This document shows positions 1 to 53,391 of a DNA stretch of 56,994 nucleotides, piece by piece. Below the pieces are notes generated by a model. The model worked only from the letters and a program-made list of their open reading frames with translations, was not told where the DNA came from and did no database searches. The translations under genes were made by a program, and so were the position numbers. Position 1 is the stretch's first letter. Each line of letters opens with the position of its first letter. The DNA is from an uncultured Clostridia bacterium (GTDB lineage: Bacteria > Bacillota > Clostridia > TANB77 > CAG-465): positions 1 to 56,994 of the forward strand of contig CALXBV010000083.1 in NCBI GenBank assembly GCA_944386635.1, written 5' to 3'.

Positions 1-569
1 TTACAGAATGTAAAGAGGAAGTAGAATTTTTCAATAAATTCTTTGATAAAGAGCTTATTGAAAGATTAAATCATATATATAATTCTGAGTTTGTAAGAAT
101 TACATATACAGATGCTGTTGAATTATTAAAAGAGCATAATGATGAATTTGAATATAAAGTTGAATGGGGAACAGATCTTCAAACAGAACATGAAAGATAT
201 TTAACAGAGAAGATATTTAAAAAGCCTGTTTTTGTAACAGATTATCCAAAGGATATAAAGGCGTTTTATATGAAACAAAATGATGATAATAAAACAGTAA
301 GAGCTGTAGATATGCTTGTTCCGGGAATAGGTGAGATAATAGGTGGCTCACAAAGAGAAGAAGATTATGACAAATTAGTAAATAGAATGAATGAACTAGG
401 ACTAGATCGAAATGAATATGAATGGTATTTAGACACTAGAAAATATGGTACAGTTGTTCATTCTGGATTTGGGTTAGGATTTGAAAGATTAGTTATGTAT
501 ATGAAAGGTATGTCAAATATAAGAGATGTTATACCATTCCCAAGAACACCAGGAAATTGTTTATATTAA
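1..569 (+). CDS. asnS: Asparagine--tRNA ligase, 3' part (5' end outside the window)
   Basis: Frame open from nt 3: [56 protein letters not shown]; TAA 567-569. Confidence 0.96.
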
Positions 570-582
570 GGAGAGATAAAAG

Positions 583-2358
583 ATGAGCGAATATAGAACA
601 CATACATGTAATGAATTAAGAGAAGAGGATGCAGGTAAAGAAGTTAAATTATCTGGATTTGTAAAAACAATTAGAGATCTAGGTGGATGTGTATTTATAG
701 ATTTAAGAGATCATTATGGAATTACACAACTTACAACAGAAGATCCTAAATTATTAGAACAAATTAAAAAAATTAATGTGGAGGCTTCTATAACTGTAGA
801 AGGAACTGTAGTTAAAAGACCAGATGAAAACATTAATGATAAGTTAGCAACAGGAAGAGTAGAGGTAGAATTAAAAAGTATTATTATTCAAAATAATGTA
901 CTATTACCTATGCCTTTTGAAGTTGAAAAGAGTCATGATGTAAAAGAAGATCTAAGATTACAATATAGGTTCTTAGATTTAAGAAATGAGTCTATACATG
1001 AAAAAATAGTTTTTAGAAGTAAAGTATTAAAATGTTTAAGAGATAAAATGGACAGTATGGGATTTGTAGAGGTACAAACTCCAATTCTTACATCATCATC
1101 ACCAGAGGGTGCAAGAGATTATCTTATACCATCAAGGTTACATCCGGGTGAATTTTATGCATTACCACAGGCACCACAGCAATTTAAACAGTTACTAATG
1201 ATTTCAGGCTTTGATAAATATTATCAAATTGCTCCATGTTTTAGAGATGAGGATCCAAGAGCAGATAGATCACCAGGAGAGTTTTATCAACTAGATTTTG
1301 AAATGTCATTTGTTACACAAAAAGAAGTACTTGAAACTCTAAAAGAGGTAACAACACATGTATTTACAAAATATGGTCATGGAAAAATATCTGAGGATTC
1401 ATTTATAGAGATTCCATATAAAACAGCAATGGATAAATATGGAACAGACAAACCAGATTTAAGAAATCCATTAGTTCTTACTGATGTTAGTGAATGTTTT
1501 AAGAATTCAGGATTCAATGCTTTCAAAGGAAAGACTGTCAAAGCAATTGCAATTGATAGTAGTTTAGTAACAAGAAGATTTTTTGATGAGATGACAGATT
1601 TTGCTAAATCAGAGCTAGATATGAAAGGTCTTGCTTGGATAAAAATAAATGAGGACTCAACAGTTGTTGGGCCAATCGCAAAATATTTATCTGAAGACAT
1701 ATTAAAGGATATGCTTGAAAAGACAGGTGCTAAAGAAAATTATGGAATATTCTTTATTGCAAATGAGGATTACTTAACTGCATGTAAGGATGCTGGAAAT
1801 ATAAGAAATGAACTTGGAAAAAGATTAGGATTAATAGATGAAAATATATATAAATTCTGCTTTATTGTAGACTTTCCTTTTTATGAGTTAACTGATGATG
1901 GAAGAATTGATTTTGGACATAATCCATTTTCTATGCCACAAGGAGGTCTTGAAGCATTAGAAACTAAAGATCCTTTAGATATTTTAGCTTATCAATTTGA
2001 TATGGTTGGAAATGGCTACGAACTTGCATCTGGTGCTGTTAGAAATCATGATACTGCTATTATGACTAAGGCATTTGAAATAGCCGGTTATAGCGAAGAG
2101 ACAGTAAAAAATAAATTTGGTGCATTATACAATGCATTTAAGTATGGTGCTCCACCACATGCTGGTGCTGCTCCTGGAATTGATAGAATGATAATGGTCC
2201 TTTTAGGAGAAACAAATATTAGAGAGATTATTGCTTTTCCTAAAAATAGTAAAGCAAGAGATCTTTTAATGCAAGCTCCAAATTATGTAACAGATGAGCA
2301 ATTAAGAGATGTTCACATAAAAATCGATATAAAAGATAAAGATAAAAGAGAGGAATAA
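583..2358 (+). CDS. aspS: Aspartate--tRNA ligase
   Basis: YRTHTC, FIDLRD, LRLQYRFLDLR, YALPQAPQQFKQLLM, CFRDED, GIDR; GGAGAG RBS. Confidence 0.97.
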   Translation: MSEYRTHTCNELREEDAGKEVKLSGFVKTIRDLGGCVFIDLRDHYGITQLTTEDPKLLEQIKKINVEASITVEGTVVKRPDENINDKLATGRVEVELKSIIIQNNVLLPMPFEVEKSHDVKEDLRLQYRFLDLRNESIHEKIVFRSKVLKCLRDKMDSMGFVEVQTPILTSSSPEGARDYLIPSRLHPGEFYALPQAPQQFKQLLMISGFDKYYQIAPCFRDEDPRADRSPGEFYQLDFEMSFVTQKEVLETLKEVTTHVFTKYGHGKISEDSFIEIPYKTAMDKYGTDKPDLRNPLVLTDVSECFKNSGFNAFKGKTVKAIAIDSSLVTRRFFDEMTDFAKSELDMKGLAWIKINEDSTVVGPIAKYLSEDILKDMLEKTGAKENYGIFFIANEDYLTACKDAGNIRNELGKRLGLIDENIYKFCFIVDFPFYELTDDGRIDFGHNPFSMPQGGLEALETKDPLDILAYQFDMVGNGYELASGAVRNHDTAIMTKAFEIAGYSEETVKNKFGALYNAFKYGAPPHAGAAPGIDRMIMVLLGETNIREIIAFPKNSKARDLLMQAPNYVTDEQLRDVHIKIDIKDKDKREE

Positions 2359-3348: not shown

Positions 3349-3948
3349 ATGGAAAAAGAAGAAATTCTTTTAAATATAAAAAAAGAAGCTTTAGATAATC
3401 ATATACCTATAATAGAAGATGACTCTTTAGAGTATATAAAAAAAATACTTGAAGAATGTAAACCCAACAAGATATTAGAAATTGGAACAGCTGTTGGATA
3501 TTCAGCTATAAATTTCTCAAAGTATTTATATGGAGAAAATAGTAAAATTACAACAATAGAAATAAAAGAGCAAATGTATGAAAAGGCAATTGAGAATATT
3601 TCTTTAATGAAATTACAAGACAAAATTGAGGTAATCAATGCAGATGCTACTAAATATTTAAAGCAAATCAACGATCAATATGACGTAGTTTTTATTGATG
3701 CTGCTAAAGGACAATATTTGGTATTTTTAGAAGAAGCAATTAGACTATGTAAAATCGGTGGAATTATAATTGCTGATAACATGCTATATAGAGGCAGAAC
3801 TTTATCTAATTATAATGAGCATAAACATAGAACTGCTACAAATAGATTAAGAGAATATTTAGTTCAAATGGAAGAAGATGAAAGACTGGATTCTAAACTA
3901 GTGAAAGTAGGAGATGGTCTTGCAATAAGTATAGTAAAAAGTAAATAA
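3349..3948 (+). CDS. SAM-dependent O-methyltransferase (YrrM/TrmR-like)
   Basis: ILEIGTAVGYSA motif I, YDVVFIDAAKGQY, GGIIIADN, GDGLAI. Confidence 0.85.
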   Translation: MEKEEILLNIKKEALDNHIPIIEDDSLEYIKKILEECKPNKILEIGTAVGYSAINFSKYLYGENSKITTIEIKEQMYEKAIENISLMKLQDKIEVINADATKYLKQINDQYDVVFIDAAKGQYLVFLEEAIRLCKIGGIIIADNMLYRGRTLSNYNEHKHRTATNRLREYLVQMEEDERLDSKLVKVGDGLAISIVKSK

Positions 3949-9516: not shown

Positions 9517-9601
9517 GCGGGTATGGTGGAATTGGCAGACACGTCGGTCTTAGAAGCCGATGCCGCGAGGCGTGAAGGTTCAAGTCCTTTTACCCGCACC
9601 A
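9517..9601 (+). tRNA. tRNA-Leu (anticodon TAG)
   Basis: Acceptor GCGGGTA/TACCCGC, D loop GGAATTGGCAGAC, anticodon arm TCGGT-CTTAGAA-GCCGA, long variable arm, GGTTCAAGTCC, encoded CCA. Confidence 0.97.
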
Positions 9602-25898: not shown

Positions 25899-25972
25899 TG
25901 GCAGGGGCACTAGGAATCGAACCCAGCTCTGGAGTTTTGGAGACTCTTATTCTACCGATGAACTATGCCCCT
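25899..25972 (-). tRNA. tRNA-Trp (anticodon CCA)
   Basis: Reverse complement AGGGGCA-TA-GTTC-ATCGGTA-GAAT-A-AGAGT-CTCCAAA-ACTCC-AGAG-CTGGG-TTCGATT-CCTAG-TGCCCCT-G-CCA. Confidence 0.96.
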
Positions 25973-50263: not shown

Positions 50264-50290
50264 TAATAAAAATATTGTTGTAAAATACAG

Positions 50291-50319
50291 TTGCATTGTA
50301 TAAAATACAATGATATAAT
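50291..50319 (+). promoter_or_regulatory. SigA promoter of the nrdD operon with an overlapping palindromic site
   Basis: TTGCAT-17 bp-TATAAT with extended TG; CATTGTAT-AAA-ATACAATG at 50294-50312. Confidence 0.65.
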
Positions 50320-50351
50320 TTCAAATAATTAGTAGTAGGGGTGAAATATTC

Positions 50352-52598
50352 ATGATAACTAAAGTTATAAAAAGAGACGGAAGAAAAGTAAATTTTAATG
50401 TAGAAAGAATAGCAAAATCAATATATAAAGCTGCTAATTCAATCGGAGGACAAGACTATTCAAGGTCAAAAGAACTAGCTGAAATAGTATATAAAGAGTT
50501 AGATAAAATTCAACAAAATAATCAAATAGAATCTAGTAAAATTTATGATATAGTACAAGACGTATTAAAAAAAGAAGGCCATGAGTCAACACTCAAAGTA
50601 TATACTTTATTCAGAGAGGAAAGAGACAGAGTAAGAGAAAGAAGTTTGCCAATAATTAAAACATATGAAAAACTTACCTTTCAAGATTCTAAGGATAGCA
50701 ATGTAAAAAGAGAAAATGCAAATATAAATGCAGATACAGCAATGGGAACAATGCTAAAGTATGGCTCTGAAGGAGCTAAGAATTTTTATCAGTTATGTGT
50801 CTTAAAACCACAGCATGCACAAGCACATAAAAATGGTGATATTCATATTCATGATTTAGATTTTTTAACTCTTACTACTACATGTTGTCAGATAGACTTA
50901 ATAAAACTTTTTAAAGATGGATTTTGTACTGGCGAGGGATTTTTAAGAGAGCCACAAAGTATAGGAAGTTATGCTGCTCTTGCTGCAATTGCAATACAAT
51001 CAAATCAAAACGATCAACATGGTGGACAAAGTATACCAAACTTTGAGTATGCTATGGCAAAAGGAGTAAAGATATCATATAAAAAAGAATATTTAAAAAA
51101 TCTTACAAAAGCAATAGAGCTTATAACAGATGAAAAAGAGCCAGAAAAACTTGCAAGTGATATAGTAAAATCTATTAAATATGATAAAGACTTGGTAGCC
51201 TCATATGAAGATTCAAATGGATATTTAAAAGTAGAAAGAGCATATTTAAGTAAGTATTTTGATAAAAATACCATCAAAAAAATACAAGATTTCTGTGTAA
51301 AGTATACAGATAAAGAGGTAGAAAGAGCTACATATCAAGCTATGGAAGGATTTATCCATAATTTAAATACAATGCATTCAAGAGCTGGTGCACAGGTACC
51401 ATTTAGTAGTATTAATTATGGTCTTGATACATCTGCTGAGGGAAGGCTCGTTATGAAGCAGTTATTATATGCTACAGAGGCAGGACTTGGAAATGGTGAA
51501 ACTCCAATTTTCCCTATACAAATACTTAGAGTAAAAGATGGAATAAACTATAATCCAACAGATCCTAACTATGATATATTTAAGTTAAGTTGTAGAGTAT
51601 CAGCAAAGAGATTGTTCCCAAACTTTTCTTTTATTGATGCACCATTTAATTTAAAGTATTATAGAAAAGGAGATTATAATTCTGAGGTCGCATATATGGG
51701 CTGTAGGACAAGAGTTATGGCTAATGTATATGATCCATCAAAAGAAGTAACATGTGGTAGAGGTAATTTAAGCTTTACTTCTATAAATCTTCCAAGACTT
51801 GGAATTGAAGCAAAAGGAGATATAGATAAATTTTTTGAAATGCTAGACGAAAAGATGGATTTAGTAATAGATCAATTGAAAGCAAGATTTGAAATACAAG
51901 CAAATAAACATGTATATAATTATCCATTTTTAATGGGACAACATGTGTGGCTTGACTCAGAAAAGTTAAAAAATACAGATAAAGTAGGAGAAGTTTTAAA
52001 ACATGGTACTCTTACAGTTGGATTTATAGGACTTGCTGAAACTCTTAAAGCTCTAATTGGAAAGCATCATGGGGAAAGTGAAGAGGCAAGAGAACTAGGA
52101 CTTAGAATCGTTAGACATATGAGACAAAGAGTAGATGAGGAGTCTCAAAAAGAAAAACTTAACTTTACTCTTATTGCAACTCCAGCAGAAGGCTTATCTG
52201 GTAGATTTGTAAAAATAGATAAGAAAAAATATGGAATAATAGAAGGCGTGACAGATAGGGAATATTATACAAATTCATTTCACATACCTGTATATTATAA
52301 AATTAGCGCTTTTAATAAGATAAAAATTGAAGCTCCATATCATGAGTTAACAAATGGAGGTCATATAAGCTATGTAGAACTTGATGGTGACCCTACTAAA
52401 AACTTAAAAGCTTTTGAGCAAATAATAAGATGTATGAAAGAATCTGGAATAGGTTACGGCTCAATAAATCATCCTGTAGACAGAGATCCTGTGTGTGGAT
52501 TTACTGGAATTATAAAAGATGTATGTCCATGCTGTGGAAGAAAAGAATTTGAAGAAGTAGATAAAATTAGTGAAAGAATATTAAGAATAAGGAGGTAA
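50352..52598 (+). CDS. nrdD: Anaerobic (class III) ribonucleotide reductase large subunit, lacking the glycyl-radical tail
   Basis: ATP cone (VIKRDG), IHIHDLDF, TTTCCQI, YMGCRTR, GRGNLSFTSINLPR, ATPAEGL, YYTNSFH, DPVCG...CPCCG; ends ILRIRR-stop with no ITGY. Confidence 0.95.
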   Translation: MITKVIKRDGRKVNFNVERIAKSIYKAANSIGGQDYSRSKELAEIVYKELDKIQQNNQIESSKIYDIVQDVLKKEGHESTLKVYTLFREERDRVRERSLPIIKTYEKLTFQDSKDSNVKRENANINADTAMGTMLKYGSEGAKNFYQLCVLKPQHAQAHKNGDIHIHDLDFLTLTTTCCQIDLIKLFKDGFCTGEGFLREPQSIGSYAALAAIAIQSNQNDQHGGQSIPNFEYAMAKGVKISYKKEYLKNLTKAIELITDEKEPEKLASDIVKSIKYDKDLVASYEDSNGYLKVERAYLSKYFDKNTIKKIQDFCVKYTDKEVERATYQAMEGFIHNLNTMHSRAGAQVPFSSINYGLDTSAEGRLVMKQLLYATEAGLGNGETPIFPIQILRVKDGINYNPTDPNYDIFKLSCRVSAKRLFPNFSFIDAPFNLKYYRKGDYNSEVAYMGCRTRVMANVYDPSKEVTCGRGNLSFTSINLPRLGIEAKGDIDKFFEMLDEKMDLVIDQLKARFEIQANKHVYNYPFLMGQHVWLDSEKLKNTDKVGEVLKHGTLTVGFIGLAETLKALIGKHHGESEEARELGLRIVRHMRQRVDEESQKEKLNFTLIATPAEGLSGRFVKIDKKKYGIIEGVTDREYYTNSFHIPVYYKISAFNKIKIEAPYHELTNGGHISYVELDGDPTKNLKAFEQIIRCMKESGIGYGSINHPVDRDPVCGFTGIIKDVCPCCGRKEFEEVDKISERILRIRR

Positions 52599-52603
52599 TA
52601 TAT

Positions 52604-52876
52604 ATGAAAATAAATACAAGTGGAGAAAGTATTTCTCAAGATGAAATAAATGAATATGTAAAATATGTGGAGGAAAAATATCCAGATAAAAAGATTGCTA
52701 CATTAGATTTAAACATAAATGGAGATTATGTAGATTTAAGCTATACCTTTGAAAATGATGTACCATTTGAAAGAATTAGAAGAATAACAGGGTACTTAGT
52801 AGGAACATTAGATAGATTTAATGATGGTAAAAGAGCTGAAGAACGTGATAGAGTAAAACATGATGTGTTGGTATAG
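52604..52876 (+). CDS. Stand-alone glycyl-radical domain protein of the class III RNR, 90 aa
   Basis: Own AGGAGG RBS; FERIRRITGYLVGTLDRFNDGKRAEERDRVKH is the NrdD C-terminal radical motif (Gly63). Confidence 0.9.
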   Translation: MKINTSGESISQDEINEYVKYVEEKYPDKKIATLDLNINGDYVDLSYTFENDVPFERIRRITGYLVGTLDRFNDGKRAEERDRVKHDVLV

Positions 52877-52884
52877 GAGAAATT

Positions 52885-53391
52885 ATGTGCGATAAAATAA
52901 AAATAGCAGGCATTGTAGAAGAATCAATTGTAGATGGTCCTGGAATTAGGTTTGTCATATTTACGCAGGGCTGTCCACATAAATGTATTGGATGTCATAA
53001 TCCTCAAACTCACGATTTTAGTTTAGGTAGATATGAAGATATAGATAAGTTAGTGGATATGATAGATTCAAATCCACTACTTAGTGGTATTACACTAAGT
53101 GGAGGAGAGCCTTTTATGCAGCCTTTGCAACTTGTAAGTCTTATTGATAAAATAAAAAATAAAAATTTAGATGTTATAACTTATACAGGATATACATATG
53201 AAAAATTAATGCAAAGTAAAAATAAAGATATATTAGAGCTTTTAAAAAGAACAGATATATTAATTGATGGGGAGTTTGTATTAGAGTTAAAAGATGAAAA
53301 CTTGGAATTTAGAGGTAGCTCAAATCAAAGAGCTATAGATGTAAAAAAAAGTATGAATAAAGGATGTATAATAGAATATAATTTTTCATAA
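52885..53391 (+). CDS. nrdG: Anaerobic RNR activating enzyme (radical SAM)
   Basis: SIVDGPGIR, GCPHKCIGCHN (CxxxCxxC), ITLSGGEP, FRGSSNQR. Confidence 0.95.
   Translation: MCDKIKIAGIVEESIVDGPGIRFVIFTQGCPHKCIGCHNPQTHDFSLGRYEDIDKLVDMIDSNPLLSGITLSGGEPFMQPLQLVSLIDKIKNKNLDVITYTGYTYEKLMQSKNKDILELLKRTDILIDGEFVLELKDENLEFRGSSNQRAIDVKKSMNKGCIIEYNFS

Follow-up and report, generated by a model that had tools for sequence, protein, structure and literature searches.

A class III ribonucleotide reductase gene without its radical glycine, and a family of small glycyl-radical proteins that probably act as its spare part

The stretch of DNA analysed here (hereafter the window: all 56,994 nt of contig CALXBV010000083.1, assembly GCA_944386635.1, from an uncultured Clostridia bacterium, a gut anaerobe) contains three head-to-tail genes on one strand, namely an nrdD lacking the codon for its radical glycine, a 90-aa gene that carries such a glycine, and nrdG. 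Judging from their sequences, we consider it quite probable that these genes encode a two-subunit class III ribonucleotide reductase (RNR) and its activase, evolved from a spare part of the GrcA kind. What defines a glycyl radical enzyme is that its own C-terminal loop carries the radical, and to our knowledge the only functional exception is GrcA, which repairs oxygen-cleaved pyruvate formate-lyase. We also lean towards a broader proposal, that the family of the 90-aa protein is the class III RNR counterpart of GrcA in at least 575 species (Clostridia, some Coriobacteriia and Erysipelotrichia) and the first spare-part system outside the formate lyases. This family would have repeatedly let NrdD discard its glycine loop (on at least four occasions in the case of the 90-aa type, and separately for a short type of 50-80 aa), giving two-subunit RNRs that are the sole deoxyribonucleotide route in some gut and rumen anaerobes. 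The preliminary description of the locus could not tell how widespread the arrangement is; the small protein is in fact no invention of this locus but a member of a large, mostly stand-alone family.

The glycine-less gene, which we call nrdD' (and its 90-aa neighbour, the small gene), encodes a class III RNR chain that matches positions 1-537 of the 562 in the Pfam NRDD profile (PF13597, E 3.7e-193) and 1-719 of the 746 in NCBIfam NF005497 (1077 bits, cut-off 764). It aligns with the Prevotella copri NrdD (PDB 8P23, E 1.5e-173) across the MGCRTRV motif, the TTCCQ motif and the zinc-site Cys cluster (Table 1), the latter sitting in NHPVDRDPVCG...CPCCG and being conserved in orthologues. The C-terminus reads ...CPCCGRKEFEEVDKISERILRIRR, with a TAA stop at 52596-52598 (...KEFEEVDKISERILRIRR-TAA), and the RxxGY motif, expected on the same chain in a member of the class, is absent from it, the profile match stopping at 537 of 562. 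Ending two residues before the position of the glycine, NrdD' looks like a genetically fixed counterpart of the oxygen-truncated enzyme.

What is missing from NrdD' is found on the small protein. Its residues 55-86 align to residues 707-738 of the P. copri enzyme, and by this alignment Gly63 matches the radical glycine of the P. copri loop, Gly711 in the numbering of PMC11226230. Coverage of the NRDD profile is complementary, the small protein matching only positions 532-562; no match to the Pfam Gly_radical profile (PF01228) was obtained at E<=0.01, PF13597 alone being hit. Going by these alignments, NrdD' alone is not a canonical NrdD, and NrdD' and the small protein together have every feature of one. 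The third gene encodes an activase with the expected CX3CX2C signature (Cys30-x3-Cys34-x2-Cys37, in GCPHKCIGC). The three genes are tightly packed: the spacer between nrdD' and the small gene is 5 nt, the AGGAG of nrdG overlaps the TAG stop of the small gene, and no terminator-like sites were found between the three genes. In relatives, AGGAGG or GGAGG precedes the small gene at a like spacing. The preliminary description had been accurate on this anatomy: its 748-aa NrdD, with ATP cone, catalytic cysteines and zinc region but ending in ERILRIRR-TAA, is confirmed by the open reading frame (ORF), the profiles and the alignment; the sequence agrees that the last two codons, AGG AGG, double as a Shine-Dalgarno sequence 8 nt before an ATG in another frame; and coordinates and profiles agree with a 90-aa product having a distinct N-terminus of about 53 aa and Gly63, with nrdG next.

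Table 1. Features of the nrdD'-small-nrdG locus (positions in the window)
Feature	Position	Strand	Basis
nrdD', class III ribonucleotide reductase catalytic chain, 748 aa	50352-52598	+	ORF; Pfam NRDD; NCBIfam NF005497
ATP cone of NrdD', aa 4-93	50361-50630	+	Pfam PF03477, E 1.6e-16
Cys178 codon (TTCCQ)	50883-50885	+	Aligned with conserved active-site Cys of P. copri NrdD 8P23
Cys451 codon (MGCRTRV), finger-loop Cys, predicted thiyl-radical carrier	51702-51704	+	Motif identical in P. copri NrdD
Predicted zinc-site cluster on the large chain, Cys715, Cys725, Cys727, Cys728	52494-52535	+	NHPVDRDPVCGFTGIIKDVCPCCG; aligned with Zn site of 8P23 glycyl radical domain
Remnant of cis glycyl tail, ERILRIRR and TAA	52572-52598	+	Codon-by-codon comparison with full-length L114 and L116 (ERIRRITGY)
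AGGAGG, Shine-Dalgarno of small gene and codons Arg747-Arg748 of NrdD'	52590-52595	+	8 nt before ATG at 52604, other frame
Small glycyl-radical subunit gene (predicted), 90 aa	52604-52876	+	ORF; carries FERIRRITGYLVG...RVKH with Gly63
N-terminal domain of small protein, aa 1-53	52604-52762	+	Family-specific; predicted beta-alpha-beta-beta
NrdD-type glycyl-radical loop and tail, aa 54-86, PFERIRRITGYLVGTLDRFNDGKRAEERDRVKH	52763-52861	+	Pfam NRDD positions 532-562
Gly63 codon GGG, predicted radical site	52790-52792	+	Invariant G of RITGY in 48 family members
nrdG, radical S-adenosylmethionine (SAM) activase, 168 aa	52885-53391	+	TIGR02491, 151.4 bits (cut-off 126.1); Pfam Fer4_12, Radical_SAM

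Errors of sequencing or assembly do not account for the split, because the identical junction is present in 13 metagenome contigs assembled independently in several studies and in a sister species (L004), which has the same layout with a TAG stop instead of TAA. Two shorter nrdD calls among the 13 contigs are scaffold gaps of N. The preliminary description had allowed that relatives might show one continuous ORF at the junction; the 13 assemblies and the sister keep the split. The window's own assembly is 77% complete and in 105 contigs, and an error or a recent pseudogenising mutation in this one metagenome-assembled genome (MAG) could be imagined on that account, but given the 13 assemblies, the many synonymous differences and other stop codon of the sister species, and 90-aa homologues on hundreds of contigs, this explanation deserves practically no credence. 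Moreover, nrdD' and the small gene are both under strong purifying selection: in the comparison with the sister species, the ratio of nonsynonymous to synonymous substitution rates (dN/dS) is 0.054 in nrdD' (where dS is 0.70), 0.070 in the small gene and 0.169 in nrdG. Within the clade, dN/dS of the small gene is 0.04-0.29, mostly 0.15-0.25 in the N-terminal domain and 0-0.12 in the glycine tail. When columns invariant in 15 full-length orthologues are considered, NrdD' keeps 245 of 256 in the core and 4 of 22 in the tail.

The two ORFs could still be joined in translation if a programmed -1 frameshift near AGG AGG produced a single polypeptide in which 53 inserted residues precede the glycine loop. 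The ORFs are just 5 nt apart, the frame of the small gene runs on without a stop for a further 10 codons 5' of its ATG (a stop-to-stop frame of 100 aa), and in E. coli tandem AGG codons are known to be prone to frameshifting. However, the X XXY YYZ slippery heptamer is absent, the window and its sister do not share the sequence immediately upstream, and the small gene has its own start (AGGAGG, 8 nt, ATG). The two genes are, in addition, unlinked in Ruminococcus albus 8 and in a further genome described below (G244), and in three relatives of the window's clade (L132, L134 and L136) a fused product is impossible because nrdD' and the small gene are separated by a spacer of 530-1000 nt (22% G+C) with stops in all frames. 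We thus regard the frameshift as very unlikely and retain two separate polypeptides.

The history of the split can be approached through the window's relatives. Two genomes of the same genus (G415 and G347) and one of the same family (G032) have the operon nrdD(full)-small-nrdG-nrdR; the full-length NrdD of these genomes contains ...FERIRRITGYLVGT...RVKH..., and the window's tail ERILRIRR is collinear with the ERIRRITGY of full-length relatives. In the window's own clade, where the gene order is amidase, nrdD', small, nrdG, AI-2E transporter, amino-acid kinase, all members have a glycine-less NrdD, and their small proteins are 73-100% identical. The 5-nt junction is found in the window, the sister and L130. 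Tails of NrdD' in clade relatives read, up to the stop, ERITRIRR, ERITRRRIK, ERLKRKSSFCCK and ERLKRPAKYSCCN, the last three belonging to the long-spacer relatives. Since members of the small gene family mostly stand alone in genomes that also have a complete NrdD, and since relatives have the gene within the nrd operon, the split is a secondary loss of the cis tail in the window's clade, whose nrd operon already included a spare-part-like gene. The order of events would be the arrival of this gene in the operon, the loss of the cis tail and then the deletion of the spacer, which would place the Shine-Dalgarno sequence of the small gene inside the last codons of nrdD'. The 5-nt junction is more likely a later deletion because clade relatives are glycine-less with a long spacer. 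A single deletion in a full-length ancestor, from the Thr codon of RITGY to the Shine-Dalgarno sequence of the small gene, was rejected on the same evidence. A split by a mobile element was also rejected: the spacer is 5 nt, there are no Rfam matches in the locus, and the spacers of the relatives contain no conserved ORF. Gene callers do place antisense ORFs of 91-95 aa in the spacer of L132, L134 and L136, which stands in place of the lost cis tail; these ORFs are probably spurious.

The window's clade is not the only one to have parted with the cis glycine. The preliminary description had proposed that nrdD genes lacking RxxGY be surveyed for small glycine-bearing ORFs, and such separate ORFs do exist. 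Among 399 Clostridia genomes sampled evenly, 11 have a glycine-less NrdD, 10 have a small gene of the long (90-aa) type, and 9 have a short ORF (frames of 56-84 aa) with the glycine motif alone and no N-terminal domain, located 200-250 nt 3' of an nrdD whose product matches the profile up to about position 531 (G372, G207, G153, G395, G234, G246, G298, G036 and G220; e.g. G207:C55:22313-24503). The glycine-less NrdDs keep 243-256 of the 256 core-invariant positions and only 4-8 of the 22 tail positions, and in the genomes examined they were seen only alongside a separate glycine ORF. A particularly clear case is G244 (97% complete, 0% contamination), which has a single NrdD of 751 aa ending ...EHERIPGSVRLPRVKHE and whose sole glycine motif is on an unlinked small protein of the long type, encoded next to flavodiiron, rubredoxin and Crp/Fnr genes. 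Seven genomes (G244, G220, G372, G395, G153, G234 and G207; 92-100% complete) have one NrdD, glycine-less, with the glycine motif on a separate ORF only. No ribonucleotide reductase other than the split enzyme was detected in these seven genomes, since their sole NrdD is glycine-less and PF02867 (class I/II RNR) was not found in them; the same profile matched 12 of 14 control genomes. In a maximum-likelihood NrdD tree, carriers of the long type show at least four independent losses of the cis glycine, in (i) the window's clade, (ii) "Clostridiales bacterium strain 16", next to Zhenpiania hominis, (iii) R. albus 8, next to Ruminococcus flavefaciens, and (iv) G244. The tail remnant differs in each of them.

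The small-protein family extends well beyond these cases. Homologues of 50-157 aa numbered at least 7999 in a word-indexed search, and an exhaustive HMMER search of 1.84 billion representatives (clusters at 50% identity) matched 2030 clusters with E<=1e-3, of which 637 had E<=1e-10; small proteins make up all of the top 150, and most of these cover residues 1-88. At least 575 loci occur in a collection of species-representative genomes, in R. flavefaciens, R. albus, Christensenellaceae, Oscillospiraceae, Lachnospiraceae, Erysipelotrichaceae, Eggerthellaceae and others. The gene generally stands alone: 79 of 80 retrieved loci lack both nrdD and nrdG within 4 kb, the sole exception being the window's sister species, and in 13 of the 16 genomes examined among stand-alone carriers every NrdD is full-length with its own glycine motif. 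In an alignment of 48 members the tail is near-invariant (F55, R57, R59-L65, G67, K76, E79, R83 and H86), and E14, Y18 and G40 are invariant in the N-terminal domain. This domain is conserved and predicted to fold: in an AlphaFold2 model of the isolated protein it forms a beta-alpha-beta-beta unit with a predicted local distance difference test score (pLDDT) of 75-81, and it may, as the preliminary description suggested, serve for docking. It has no match in Pfam, NCBIfam or the PDB; Foldseek of the small protein against the PDB gave nothing below E 0.046, the hits being generic beta-alpha-beta-beta folds such as ribosome hibernation factors, and hhalign of the family against the last 200 NrdD columns placed the N-terminal domain on the preceding NrdD segment at zero confidence, with no detectable homology. 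There is no Pfam or NCBIfam model devoted to the family, and source annotations call its members "hypothetical protein" or NrdD. Some members of 180-236 aa have extra N- or C-terminal parts (P0208, P0131, P0259, P0262, P0170 and P0196) and may be real fusions or merged gene calls; P0208 consists of an N-terminal segment with two CxxCxxCxxxC ferredoxin-like motifs and the second half of the small protein. In a phage collection the long type was found only on two short unannotated "Bacteriophage sp." faecal contigs, and we rejected a phage link on so slender a basis.

What would the protein do beside a complete NrdD? By analogy with GrcA and pyruvate formate-lyase, the free-standing small proteins are most plausibly a spare part for oxygen-cleaved NrdD. 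Their tail is nearly identical to the cis tails of one class of NrdDs, those of type A, and resembles the cis tail of its own genome (29.5 of 35 positions) more than those of other genomes (28.1 of 35; permutation p about 1e-4, n=11), a likeness that fits a shared partner or gene conversion. At 12 of the 79 stand-alone loci the next gene after the small one encodes rubrerythrin (8) or a flavodiiron protein (4), and a divergent Crp/Fnr regulator lies upstream of it in 12 stand-alone loci, which suggests a small oxidative-stress unit in Ruminococcus and Christensenellaceae. The rubrerythrin neighbours are those of L005, L008, L009, L012, L013, L015, L017 and L020 and the flavodiiron ones those of L006, L007, L010 and L027, and of L118; these genes lie on the same strand, 34-51 nt from the stand-alone small gene. 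The same data could be read differently, the small protein being not a catalytic subunit but a regulator or decoy (a sink titrating NrdG, a radical store or the partner of another glycyl radical enzyme), as most genomes pair it with a complete NrdD and unlinked to nrd genes, some copies lie beside stress genes instead, and its conserved extra N-terminal domain has no assigned function. Against such a role stand the near identity of the tail to that of type-A NrdDs and the way it tracks the tail of its own genome, the lack of a match to the other glycyl-radical family (PF01228, E<=0.01), the restriction of glycine-less NrdDs, among the genomes examined, to those with a separate glycine ORF, and the case of G244, where the single RNR has no glycine carrier other than the small protein. 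We consider the decoy unlikely, and favour a protein that delivers a radical glycine to NrdD.

From the biochemistry of NrdD and GrcA, a mechanism may be suggested for the enzyme of the window. NrdD' would supply the ten-stranded barrel, the ATP cone, the zinc site and the finger-loop Cys, whose role as thiyl-radical carrier is established in NrdD, but no radical glycine; the small protein would supply the missing RITGY loop and the C-terminal tail. NrdG would abstract hydrogen from Gly63 of the small protein, and the radical loop would then insert in the NrdD' barrel beside Cys451, like the cis loop of one-piece enzymes. Oxygen would cleave the small, 10-kDa chain only, and a fresh copy could replace it. 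Such an exchange is plausible because work on the P. copri enzyme found its glycyl radical domain to be mobile and able to carry the radical in a disordered state (PMC11226230). The exchangeable carrier and the economy in the face of oxygen, which the preliminary description had already put forward, are what we infer by analogy.

Several observations weigh against this picture. Firstly, the genome has a second, canonical RNR: contig C11 carries a complete nrdD (L002 1147-3354, 735 aa, with ARRTCGYIG in cis) and an nrdG (3356-3844, 162 aa), with a divergent Crp/Fnr-family regulator upstream of nrdD (414-1055, minus strand), and the sister genome likewise has a complete second nrdD with its own nrdG. 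The organism does not depend on the split enzyme because of this canonical pair, and the split enzyme is not demonstrably needed by it. Secondly, the stem branch leading to NrdD' is long (0.42) and the ATP cone has drifted, 10 of the 13 lineage replacements at positions invariant in the 15 full-length orthologues lying in aa 19-87 (including K19R, A23S, E62S, Q65Y, E69Q, A81L, I85T and Y87F); together these could mean an altered or reduced function of NrdD'. Thirdly, the glycine loop has low confidence in the AlphaFold2 model of the isolated small protein, the likeness of own-genome tails could stem from gene conversion rather than a shared partner, the stress-gene neighbourhood is limited to Ruminococcus and Christensenellaceae (15% of loci), and the absences in the seven genomes rest on MAGs that are 92-100% complete.

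Some of these observations could be taken to mean that NrdD' is a dead relic or has acquired a new, non-reductase role, the canonical pair doing all the reduction and the small protein being a leftover spare part or serving that canonical enzyme. The second nrdD and nrdG in the window's genome and its sister, the long branch with the 10 lineage-specific changes in the cone, and nrdR, which follows nrdG in same-genus relatives and was not found in this 77%-complete genome, all go in this direction. Yet dN/dS remains at 0.054 over a dS of 0.70 accumulated with the split already fixed, the catalytic core is retained including the thiyl Cys and the zinc site, and the glycine-less state has been kept across a clade in which small proteins have diverged to 73% identity. 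The tail of the small protein is, besides, of type A (RRITGYLVGTLDRFN), not of the type B (RRTCGYIGTNFWN) found in the second enzyme, and the same design is the only RNR elsewhere. A relic or a new role is therefore quite unlikely in our view, and a working two-subunit reductase is the reading we keep. The proposal of an obligate two-component RNR, made in the preliminary description, thus stands in part. NrdD' has no cis glycine, the small protein is the only type-matched carrier, both are under purifying selection and the design is the sole RNR elsewhere; "obligate" does not hold here, where a canonical nrdD-nrdG is present. As far as the sequences go, that interpretation as a whole is partly supported.

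The surroundings of the operon call for a few remarks. The place that nrdR has in relatives is taken in the window by the AI-2E transporter gene; with this and the drift of the ATP cone, allosteric and transcriptional control of the operon may have changed. The AT-rich region upstream of nrdD' (50264-50351) contains short palindromes (ATACAgttgcaTTGTAT and TACAATGATATAAT) near promoter-like hexamers. Over the whole window, Rfam matched only two tRNA genes, at 9517-9598 (plus strand) and 25902-25972 (minus strand).

If the proposal is true, the spare-part principle extends to the enzyme by which strict anaerobes make their DNA precursors, and a spare part can turn into a permanent subunit. What is new is probably a spare-part-type glycyl radical protein for class III RNR, which here, by analogy with GrcA, would have become a constitutive subunit. 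Such enzymes would also offer a natural system to study the movement of a glycine loop out of the barrel and back, and its recognition by NrdG, and they bear on the survival of transient oxygen by gut and rumen anaerobes. For annotation pipelines the consequence is practical: the small genes are recorded as "hypothetical" or as partial NrdD, and the large chains are called intact NrdD. Cultured carriers such as R. flavefaciens and R. albus 8 make the idea testable.

How does this system compare with those already known? GrcA (YfiD) of E. coli, like Y06I of phage T4, is an autonomous glycyl radical cofactor that serves as a spare part for pyruvate formate-lyase. Like GrcA, the small protein is a free-standing copy of the segment that bears the radical glycine at the C-terminus of a large glycyl radical enzyme and usually occurs alongside the complete enzyme (as the 79 of 80 stand-alone loci and the 13 of 16 genomes with only full-length NrdD attest); by analogy, it would be activated by the enzyme's own radical-SAM activase and would replace the piece lost when oxygen cleaves the chain at the glycine. 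However, its partner is a class III RNR and not a formate lyase, and, with a match to NRDD only, it shows no kinship to the GrcA sequence family, so that it is an analogue and not a family member. It also differs in comprising just the loop and tail, the zinc site staying on the large chain, and in having its own predicted beta-alpha-beta-beta domain at the N-terminus. Finally, no cis glycine is left on the large enzyme in this lineage and at least three others, so that the small protein would be a constitutive subunit; we know of no report of a pyruvate formate-lyase in this state. According to a review of June 2026, spare parts are known for no glycyl radical enzymes other than the formate lyases (PMC13450708), and the open full-text literature that we searched, which leaves out subscription-only work, contains no description of a split NrdD or of an NrdD spare part. 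The one-piece NrdD/NrdG systems (P. copri, 8P23; phage T4 NrdD, 1H7A) share the same core, ATP cone, zinc site, thiyl-Cys loop and activase, but in the window the glycine loop and C-terminal tail are on a separate gene in another frame and the large chain stops two residues before the glycine.

A catalytic RNR chain made of pieces has a reported precedent in Aeromonas phage Aeh1, whose class I nrdA is said to be split by the homing endonuclease gene mobE, giving two polypeptides that must reassemble, as NrdD' and the small protein would have to do. In Aeh1 the mobile endonuclease gene reportedly lies within the class I catalytic core, whereas no mobile element is involved here, the break falls exactly at the radical cofactor segment and the small piece pre-existed as a free-standing family.

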